Below are positions 11,210-12,814 of a stretch of 64,000 nt of DNA, piece by piece. The stretch covers positions 42,283 to 106,282 of the forward strand of contig CAYTYP010000003.1 of the NCBI GenBank assembly GCA_964441405.1, in the 5' to 3' direction. Source of the DNA: an uncultured Acidobacteriota bacterium (GTDB lineage Bacteria; Acidobacteriota; UBA6911). Below the pieces are notes generated by a model. It ran no database searches. It saw only the letters and a list, made by a program, of their open reading frames with translations, and was not told the DNA's origin. Every line of letters begins with the position of its first letter. Within the stretch, counting starts at the first letter, position 1. The translations under genes were made by a program, and so were the position numbers.

Positions 11210-12814
11210 TTATCTCCATTCATCCACAGAGATGCTGGCAAGGTGCTTCAGATCTCCGGCTTGGAACAGAGCTTCAACTCCTCCTCCCGTCACCACAATC
11301 GAGATATCTTTGGGGCTGGCGAATTGAGGCGTCTTGGCATTCTTCTGGAGCCACTCGCTTAATTTTTCTTTCGTGTCGTAGCCTTGTTCTTTGAGAACTT
11401 TGGCCGTCAGCGGGTCGCAAATGACCAGGGCTCCGGCTCCGGTAAAGGTTTCCAAAACAAGTCCGATCTGGCGATCGAACATCAGCTTTGCCGCCGAACC
11501 TCCGTTCTTTGCGCCGGGATGGACATGAACGCCCAGTCCGGTGAATAGGCTAATGATGCTTTCCCCTTTCTTAAAGCCGCGCTGCAAGCTAAAGGGCTGC
11601 CAAGGGCTGTTTGCTTCATTTTCAGCAATTACGATGTTGTTATAGTTGAGGCTGTTGCCGAGAGATCCGTTGTAAGTTTCTCCCGTGATCCCTGCATTCC
11701 CTAGATTCTTTGAGAGCAGCGTCCACGCCCTGCCGATGGCGGCATTTGCCTGGCTAAAAGGTCCCAGTGCGCCTGTTTCGAAATTCATTCCGATTTCTTC
11801 CCGAACCGGTCCGTTGATCACGACAGCTCGAGCGGGAGAATCGGAGGAATTATAAAGGGACGGAATTCCTGAAGCCGCCAGAGCCAGGATTACAGGAAAA
11901 TATTCCGGTTTCGCGCCGGCCATCACGGCATTTACCGCGACTTTTTCCACGGTAAATTCCCAAGGTCCGAAATCGCCGCCGGCCATTTTGCCTACAACTT
12001 CATCCGGACGACGGCTGGTGCCTTTCAGCATATCGCTGACCTTCTGTTCTGTCGGCAGAGTGACGGGAAGGTAATCCGTCCATCCATTAGCCATGAAAAG
12101 ACGTTGCAAAACATCGGCAGTTTGAGGCCCGATCAATTTAGCGCCTGTTTTGACTTCCAGGAATCCGGTCTTTTTATCCTCTTCCGTCAGAGGCTTTGTC
12201 AGACCATTGACTATTTCCTGGATTACGGGCGCTCCCGTTTCCGGATTATTGCCTTCGATTTGAGCTTTATGTTGCGCGGGGGTTTTGCCGCTGACCGGAT
12301 GGGTTACGAAAACCAGGCGTGCATTAGGCATTCCTTTTTTTCGAGCCATGTTTTTGGCGACTTGCACGAAGCGATGGGTGGTAATTCCCACCGATGGTTT
12401 TCCCAACTTTTCAAGAGAAACGCAATTGCCGGCGACCGCCGGCGCACAGCTGTTTCAATGACCGACAGCCATGACGACAGCGTCGCCTTTTTCTTTTATC
12501 TCCGTCCATAGCTGAGCGTCTTCCTGGTCGTAAGAACCCGCCTTTTCCCTGAATACGAGTTTCGTCTTGGGCATGTTTTTAGAAAACCAGTCCATGGTAA
12601 CTCGCAGGAGGCTGGCGCCTCCCTCGTATTGGACATCGACAAAATAAACCGTCTTGCCGTCGAGCGTGTCGAGCCTCGGCGCCATGGGGATCAACGGAAT
12701 TGGCGGCGGCGTTCCTCGAGGATTTAAAACCGAGATTTTGGCCTCTTGTGCATACGGAGAAGCGGCCGAAATCATCCCTATTGCGATTAGCAGAAACACA
12801 TTTCTTATTCTCAT
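11210..12814 (-). CDS. Candidate secreted selenoprotein (UxxC motif); in-frame fusion of ORFs 12455..12814 and 11210..12406 through a UGA at 12455..12457
   Basis: Both ORFs are in the same frame (12814-12406=408). The only intervening stop is TGA in the context AVGH-U-NSCAPAVAGNC. The 16 intervening codons are all sense. The N-terminal part has a signal peptide. A hairpin GCCGGC-GGUC-GCCGGC starts 11 nt 3' of the UGA. Alternative reading: two separate genes, the downstream one starting at TTG with a weak RBS. Confidence 0.45.

Follow-up and report, generated by a model that had tools for sequence, protein, structure and literature searches.

UGSC-containing proteins have been present in the selenoprotein literature since 2007-2008 (PMC1976440, PMC2398784). 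The UGSC-containing protein was described, both from Hyphomonas neptunium and from metagenomes, as a selenoprotein without known function (PMC1976440), and in the Global Ocean Sampling survey UGSC, with its UxxC motif, was among the most abundant selenoprotein families, 255 members having selenocysteine (Sec, U) versus 21 having cysteine (PMC2398784). The same 2008 paper guessed a thioredoxin-like fold for the family and mentions a 'UGSC/Unknown_1 fusion' (PMC2398784), whose Unknown_1 part may or may not be the C-terminal domain described below. Reviews up to 2026 keep the family, with its NCBIfam model NF041046, as uncharacterised (PMC9312934; PMC13188914), and all mentions of UGSC proteins in the searchable literature are computational. 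Here we describe a locus on the minus strand of a 64-kb window, that is, the whole stretch of 64,000 nucleotides analysed, from contig CAYTYP010000003.1 of an uncultured Acidobacteriota bacterium (50% G+C), where two open reading frames (ORFs) meet at an in-frame UGA. An original prediction, made from the letters of this window, proposed that they form one secreted selenoprotein. Our analysis makes it very likely that the locus is a single gene for a 534-residue, probably exported, long-form UGSC selenoprotein, in which the UGA is decoded as selenocysteine.

The two ORFs are one gene. Translation of the minus strand from 12814 to 11210 gives one frame of 534 codons plus TAA, and its sole internal stop is the TGA at 12457..12455. 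The upstream ORF (12455..12814) starts with ATG and encodes 119 residues, while the downstream ORF (11210..12406), with a TTG start and 398 residues, lies in the identical frame, and the 16 codons that separate them are free of stops, just as had been predicted. The junction reads DAVVMAVGH-UGA-NSCAPAVAGNCVSLEK-L(TTG)GKP, and the read-through product has the expected 534 residues and the motif GH-U-NS-C (U120, C123). A further Cys named in the prediction is also there, at residue 131, but it stands 11 residues after U and not 10. When the whole window was scanned for single TGAs with at least 60 stop-free codons on either side, 28 such junctions were found, of which only this one joins ORFs with coding-like flanks.

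The evidence that we consider decisive for selenocysteine is the Cys/Sec pairing among homologs, rather than the RNA hairpin discussed below. A homolog search in a 5.8-billion-protein collection returned more than 6,300 matches. Homologs of about 570-590 residues span 95-100% of the fused sequence, and the ORFs called for the closest relatives (65-79% identity) have 370-445 residues and begin just past the UGA column. Among 14 aligned full-length homologs, this column holds Cys in 13 (MAIGH-C-SxC-TPA) and Met in the remaining one. The codon itself was also read in 80 related loci of GTDB representative genomes. TGA stands there in 59 distinct genes of Acidobacteriota, Verrucomicrobiia, Desulfobacterota, Chloroflexota, Rokubacteria and Binatia, and TGC in 10 genes of Bradyrhizobium, Ramlibacter, Bordetella, Hyphomonadaceae and some Acidiferrales, a Sec:Cys ratio that resembles the published 255:21 (PMC2398784). 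Loci missed by the motif search contributed 23 more genes with a stop at the column and four with Leu; a stop is thus found there in about 82 genes overall, and it is TGA in all 59 read at the DNA level. Cys123 is kept in all Sec and Cys forms and is lost only in the non-redox forms GQ-L-DT and GH-M-DT. The predicted U-x-x-C redox-type motif is supported. The same cannot be said of C131, which the prediction had listed in addition to the motif: it is replaced by Ile in one of the closest orthologs (L083) and by Ala in two others (L085 and L086), it is not conserved in the cytoplasmic clade either, and it thus cannot be a general component of the active site. The locus therefore combines an in-frame UGA, conserved coding sequence on both sides of it and Cys homologs at the column, as a selenoprotein gene does. 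Taken together with the SECIS-like hairpin, the Cys in homologs strongly supports the reading of the TGA as selenocysteine, the central claim of the original prediction.

The prediction could not place the protein in a UGSC-type or other family and suggested that it might be a new one, but UGSC is precisely the family to which its sequence belongs. With Cys put at the UGA position for profile matching, the 534-residue product matches the Pfam model PF24696 'UGSC family' with 98.5 bits against a gathering score of 25. The match covers residues 29-186 without gaps, in one stretch along profile positions 2-159 of 172, so that the UGA (residue 120) falls in the middle of the domain. The same model also matches 50 of 54 homologs. 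The NCBIfam model NF041046 'UGSC family (seleno)protein', which has 147 positions and serves as an equivalog model for the short form, gives 80.2 bits, below its cutoff of 125, and the long-form homologs tested all remain under this cutoff as well (26-78 bits); the window protein thus belongs to the superfamily without being an equivalog in the sense of the 147-position model. Three long-form homologs (P0034, P0073 and P0100) carry the NCBI label 'UGSC family (seleno)protein'. The U/C-x-x-C after Gly-His is present in the window protein, its homologs having GH-U/C-ST-C, -GG-C or -SQ-C, and from the gapless PF24696 match we infer that the GH-U-NS-C column is that of the short-form 'UGSC' motif. 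The small single-domain architecture of the family is not found here, where 534 residues include a signal peptide and a C-terminal domain of about 345 residues. By profile evidence the protein is a long-form member of the known UGSC selenoprotein family, not a new family. Two side observations concern the diversity of this family. Variant motifs occur, namely GD-U-GTFTC, GG-U-DGC and the non-redox GQ-L-DT in which the C-terminal domain is kept (loci L038 212-418; L047, L061, L071; L032, L034, L044, L053). Two or three tandem Tat-signal long-form UGSC paralogs, each with its own in-frame TGA, are found in acidobacterial and verrucomicrobial genomes (L003, L004, L006-L009, L011, L022, L033 and L056), often with an adjacent pyrroloquinoline quinone (PQQ) dehydrogenase and sometimes a c-type cytochrome.

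Immediately after the UGA lies a hairpin that we regard as a credible candidate for a bacterial selenocysteine insertion sequence (SECIS), the element that the original prediction had proposed to look for. Its stem is a perfect 6-bp G/C helix with a GGUC tetraloop at 12437..12434, and an imperfect extended stem surrounds it at about 12417..12456. The start of the stem 11 nt after the UGA and the G/U-containing apical loop are both as expected of a bacterial SECIS. The apical pairs are intact in all 24 window-type sequences, while the lower stem takes two registers in two subclades. The hairpin resembles the SECIS of Escherichia coli fdhF, the archetype of bacterial Sec insertion elements, which likewise lies within the coding sequence just 3' of the UGA and has a GGUC tetraloop, in both cases 17-18 nt past the UGA; counted from the U of the UGA, the loop occupies nucleotides 22-25 in fdhF (codon 140) and 21-24 in the window. 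It differs from fdhF in that the upper stem of the window is the uninterrupted G/C helix and a bulged U is present only in fdhF, and other UGSC clades use the loops GUC, GUU and AGUU and other stem registers. Compared with dinucleotide shuffles, the folding energy of the window region is unremarkable (z = -1.0).

A number of results weigh against this reading, and most of them concern the hairpin. The generic minimum free energy of the 57 nt after the UGA, compared with shuffles and with synonymous recodings, gave no signal for the Sec forms; against the recodings their mean z was -0.18, and the Cys forms were lower, with a mean z of -1.04. This generic test was replaced by a position-specific one, devised after the sequences had been seen, which scores the best hairpin with a 3-6-nt apical loop starting 15-26 nt after the codon and with G in the first two loop positions, against 500 synonymous recodings drawn from the gene's own codon usage. 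In favour of the hairpin, this test separated the two classes (Mann-Whitney p = 4e-6): the mean z was +1.8 for the 59 TGA genes, 75% of which reached p < 0.1, and -0.1 for the 10 TGC genes, none of which did. The window gene itself gave p = 0.04, but these p-values overstate independence because the test was designed post hoc and the 59 genes are phylogenetically related. Covariation in the stem is slight: a double change turns G-C into A-U once, and G-C becomes G-U eleven times. Given the 24 window-type sequences, RNAalifold missed the hairpin and returned instead an implausible structure that pairs the UGA. Rfam gave no SECIS match, either in the whole window at gathering thresholds or around the UGA at E <= 10; its matches in the window were one tRNA and one spurious miRNA. 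Neither selA, selB, selD nor a tRNA-Sec gene is found in the 64-kb window, and de novo clustering of the neighbours of 80 loci revealed no partner gene common to the whole family. Where Leu or Met replaces Sec or Cys, the paralogs retain the conserved residues of the C-terminal domain, and this domain also occurs without UGSC, so that it may not depend on the Sec centre. Finally, frame continuity, family membership, the Cys/Sec pairing and the hairpin are direct results, and the redox mechanism is an inference.

It could be argued that the UGA is a true stop and that the locus holds two genes, one for a 119-residue exported protein and the other for a separate protein of 393-398 residues starting at TTG or GTG. 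Gene callers have indeed split the locus in this way, and in public records it appears as two coding sequences, of 119 or 76 residues plus 393. TGA is, moreover, the normal stop of 6 of the window's 29 Pfam-supported genes, among them the one that follows downstream, and the C-terminal domain stands alone in other organisms. However, two genes would leave the UGSC domain severed midway, at residue 120, and would require the same split at an identical column in about 82 genes across phyla. The 16 supposedly intergenic codons are conserved as protein, with Cys in place of the stop in full-length homologs. The downstream product would lack a signal peptide, and, in agreement with the original prediction, no AGG/GGA-type ribosome-binding motif is seen by eye before the TTG. 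We consider two genes very improbable.

A smaller chance still is left to a pseudogene or an assembly error, in which a nonsense change had turned TGC or TGT of a Cys-form gene into TGA. A single base change would suffice, and a catalase gene elsewhere in the window (46403..48555) looks frameshifted. But the identical TGA is present in L001 and L002, which are independent assemblies from separate sequencing runs, and likewise in the three closest orthologs, L083, L085 and L086. It is also the majority state of the column in the family, both halves of the gene are intact and conserved, and the fdhF-type GGUC-loop hairpin stands at the SECIS position. Least probable of all, in our view, is that the UGA is recoded to Trp, Gly or Cys, through near-cognate read-through or a reassigned code, and not to Sec. 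UGA has been reassigned in some uncultured lineages, and the window offers no Sec machinery to set against this; yet the same UGA that ends the six Pfam-supported genes noted above is an ordinary stop there, so that recoding at codon 120 is site-specific. The residue in homologs is, besides, Cys, which is chemically analogous to Sec and stands in a U/C-x-x-C motif, and the family is a recognised selenoprotein family with 255 Sec versus 21 Cys members (PMC2398784). Decoding of the UGA as selenocysteine in a single long-form UGSC gene is the reading that we retain, and its features are collected in Table 1.

Table 1. Coordinates of the features assigned or proposed at the UGSC locus and of its neighbouring genes in the window.
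Feature	Position	Strand	Basis or remark
Complete selenoprotein gene with in-frame UGA (proposed Sec120)	11210..12814	-	Frame; alignment of full-length homologs with 95-100% of the fused sequence
Possible Shine-Dalgarno AAGG, 7 nt upstream of ATG 12814..12812	12822..12825	-	By eye
Putative Sec-type signal peptide, residues 1 to ~22	12749..12814	-	n-region MRIR, core NVFLLIAIGMISAA, c-region SPYA/QE; cleavage site uncertain
UGSC domain, residues 29-186, predicted flavodoxin/Rossmann-like alpha/beta fold, interrupted by the UGA	12257..12730	-	Pfam PF24696 and model
UGA codon, proposed Sec120	12455..12457	-	Cys in homologs; TGA/TGC counts across loci; TGA a normal stop elsewhere
Cys123, likely resolving partner in U-x-x-C	12446..12448	-	Conservation in homologs
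SECIS-like hairpin core GCCGGC-GGUC-GCCGGC	12428..12443	-	Fold -22.5 kcal/mol; stem begins 11 nt after UGA
TTG as internal Leu137 codon, not a start	12404..12406	-	Preceding codons protein-conserved in homologs (NSCAPAVAG...SLEKLGKP)
C-terminal domain, ~345 residues (190-534), without known family or fold	11213..12247	-	Profile and fold searches
Met_synt_B12 activation-domain-like gene (weak)	13770..14492	-	Upstream neighbour
S-methyl_trans gene, homocysteine-methyltransferase type	12862..13806	-	PF02574, 207 bits; directly upstream of the UGSC gene
CBM9-like gene	10574..11140	-	Downstream neighbour
Response-regulator/PAS/GGDEF/EAL gene	8245..10377	-	Downstream, past the CBM9-like gene

The two domains of the protein are known to very different extents. 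Structures were modelled for a natural Cys homolog (P0002) and for the product of the window's downstream ORF (P0001). The fold predicted for the UGSC domain is flavodoxin/Rossmann-like, with alternating beta-strands and alpha-helices, and not thioredoxin-like. For residues from about 190 to 534 we found no match in Pfam, in NCBIfam or among solved folds, and the family profile, searched against PDB sequences, found only a chance-level match (E 0.024). A phmmer search with residues 190-534 against 1.84 billion cluster representatives returned 3,604 clusters at E <= 1e-3, with 2,024 remaining at E <= 1e-10, and the majority fit an architecture of UGSC plus this domain. Its conserved motifs include TDYLPxxLPT, VAVNAVMAGA, NGPxR, GPFxxANAxIGRA, GNxLNYNN and ENE..PW, and its invariant residues D247, N334-G-P-x-R338, R362, E398/E400, Q411 and D531/W533. 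Some proteins consist of this domain only (P0165, P0190, P0235 and P0252) and others of two tandem copies (P0185 and P0186), in both cases without UGSC and without a Pfam match, and the motifs TDGLPxxPPT, NAxMAG, NGPxR, ANAxIGRA and ENE..PW recur in these UGSC-less copies. Such standalone and tandem copies indicate an independent domain that Pfam does not model. As side observations, the tandem-duplicated domain occurs in proteins of more than 700 residues, and UGSC-less copies (P0165, P0185, P0186 and P0235) often have Cys in NAxMAG-C, where the fused forms have Ala.

The window protein is probably exported through the general secretory (Sec) pathway. Its N-terminus, MRIRNVFLLIAIGMISAASPYAQE, has by eye the look of a Sec-type signal peptide, which agrees with the original prediction, and homologs carry twin-arginine (Tat)-type or Sec-type signals at the same place. 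Acidobacterial members across the family have clear Tat-type signals (MNRRKLLSLLGMSPALLAG), Sec-type signals are found in the group that contains the window protein, L013, L060 and L086, and members from Chloroflexota, Binatia, Rokubacteria and Alphaproteobacteria have no signal peptide. Selenocysteine forms occur alike in the Tat-signal, Sec-signal and signal-less classes.

For the adjacent EF-G, all of the nearest named relatives, at 81-82% identity, come from Acidobacteriota MAGs. On the minus strand the gene order is Met_synt_B12-like, S-methyl_trans, UGSC, CBM9-like and response-regulator/PAS/GGDEF/EAL, an order that close orthologs retain. The stop of S-methyl_trans overlaps the UGSC start in L083 and L086, implying co-transcription in this lineage, to which the linkage is specific. 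PF02574 enzymes are also known to methylate selenium-containing amino acids, perhaps a coincidence. The Met_synt_B12-like, S-methyl_trans and CBM9-like genes were considered as family-wide partners and rejected, as they are absent beside all 80 more distant homologs; being found only in syntenic close relatives, these neighbours were not used to infer function. Elsewhere in the family, the UGSC gene is followed on the same strand in eight cytoplasmic-form loci, after 0-160 nt, by one for a TrxB-like pyridine-nucleotide-disulphide oxidoreductase with a CASC motif, and this neighbour accompanies Sec forms as well as Cys forms. In 11 Tat-form acidobacterial loci a PQQ dehydrogenase gene adjoins the UGSC gene, with a c-type cytochrome nearby in five; a secreted protein of about 190 residues and of unknown kind is directly downstream in about nine loci; and TctC-type solute receptors are found in proteobacterial loci. 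PQQ dehydrogenase, cytochrome c and TctC are at present the leads towards a substrate pathway. Among these pairings, that with the TrxB-like gene is the best support for, and suggests, a thiol/selenol redox cycle.

We propose that during translation the hairpin downstream of codon 120 would recruit SelB and tRNA-Sec, which would read this codon as selenocysteine. Sec120 and Cys123 would be placed where a beta-strand ends and a helix starts in the predicted flavodoxin-like domain, and the two residues would form a selenol/thiol to selenenylsulfide redox couple whose substrate would be bound by the large C-terminal domain. An external reductant would afterwards return the oxidised centre to its reduced state, and in cytoplasmic relatives this reductant is probably the TrxB-like flavoprotein encoded immediately downstream; this pairing suggests a path from NAD(P)H to flavoprotein to the Sec/Cys pair to substrate. 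We further speculate, tentatively and as a proposal that we hold rather unlikely, that long-form UGSC proteins constitute an unrecognised family of two-domain selenoenzymes, in which the Sec-x-x-Cys flavodoxin-like module reduces a catalytic or substrate-binding domain of about 345 residues. The C-terminal domain would then have a fold unseen in solved structures, a dedicated TrxB-like reductase would feed the cytoplasmic forms, and the exported forms would be fed by a periplasmic donor that might be connected with the PQQ dehydrogenase and cytochrome c encoded beside them. If true, this would mean a new reductase chemistry in a family of great abundance in soil Acidobacteriota, where it often occurs as tandem paralogs.

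Other genes of the window deserve brief mention. The catalase gene at 46403..48555 (+) is in two frames through a frameshift, which comes from either a pseudogene or an assembly indel: the ORF 46403..46984 (+) corresponds to positions 1-99 of the Pfam Catalase model, and the overlapping ORF 46876..48555 (+) to positions 102-381 plus Catalase-rel and Catalase_C. Two sulfatase genes and one radical-SAM/SPASM gene are found at 20429..22255, 27577..29493 and 29583..31055 (all on the minus strand), the last-named kind resembling an anaerobic sulfatase-maturating enzyme and having a C-terminal SEC-C motif. In a 690-residue protein at 17343..19415 (+), multihaem cytochrome c domains (c7, c3, paired CXXCH) are joined to a cytochrome b561-type membrane domain. 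Long ORFs without a Pfam match are present at 25001..27172 (+, 723 residues) and 42340..43191 (+, 283 residues). A 459-residue protein at 989..2368 (+) has a URO-D-like domain in its C-terminal half only, and a DUF2284 predicted metal-binding protein is encoded after it at 2485..3036 (+).

In summary, the gene is a new, currently mis-annotated long-form member of the known UGSC family. By itself it would not surprise a selenoprotein specialist. Its split annotation is shared by most Sec-type relatives, which means that an abundant selenoprotein family of soil Acidobacteriota is being systematically mis-called, and the analysis also provides leads in the predicted flavodoxin-like redox domain, the unmodelled domain that makes up most of the protein and the TrxB-like pairing.

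Compared with described systems, a mechanistic analogy with GrdB and PrdB (PF07355), the substrate-specific selenoprotein B subunits of glycine reductase and D-proline reductase, is plausible, as these are also bacterial selenoproteins with U-x-x-C in a larger substrate-binding protein, and a Sec nucleophile with a resolving Cys may be common to both. PF07355 does not match the window protein (E <= 0.1) or any of 54 family members (E <= 5), however, the window gene has no grd or prd neighbours, and the Grd and Prd proteins are cytoplasmic, whereas the window protein is predicted to be exported. The thioredoxin-fold UxxC/CxxU selenoproteins known from metagenome surveys (Trx-, Prx- and DsbA-like) similarly have Sec-x-x-Cys at the N-terminus of a helix, and some of them are exported. 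They differ in fold, for the UGSC domain of the window is modelled with the alternating beta/alpha arrangement of flavodoxin, and no thioredoxin-family Pfam model matches the window protein. With the UGSC family itself the window protein shares the N-terminal PF24696 domain, the motif GH-U-x-S/T/G-C and the prevalence of Sec forms with a Cys minority. Even so, it departs from the short form described by the 147-position model in its length, its signal peptide and its additional domain of about 345 residues, in a motif that reads U-N-S-C and not U-G-S-C, and in a modelled flavodoxin/Rossmann-like fold in place of the thioredoxin-like one guessed earlier (PMC2398784).
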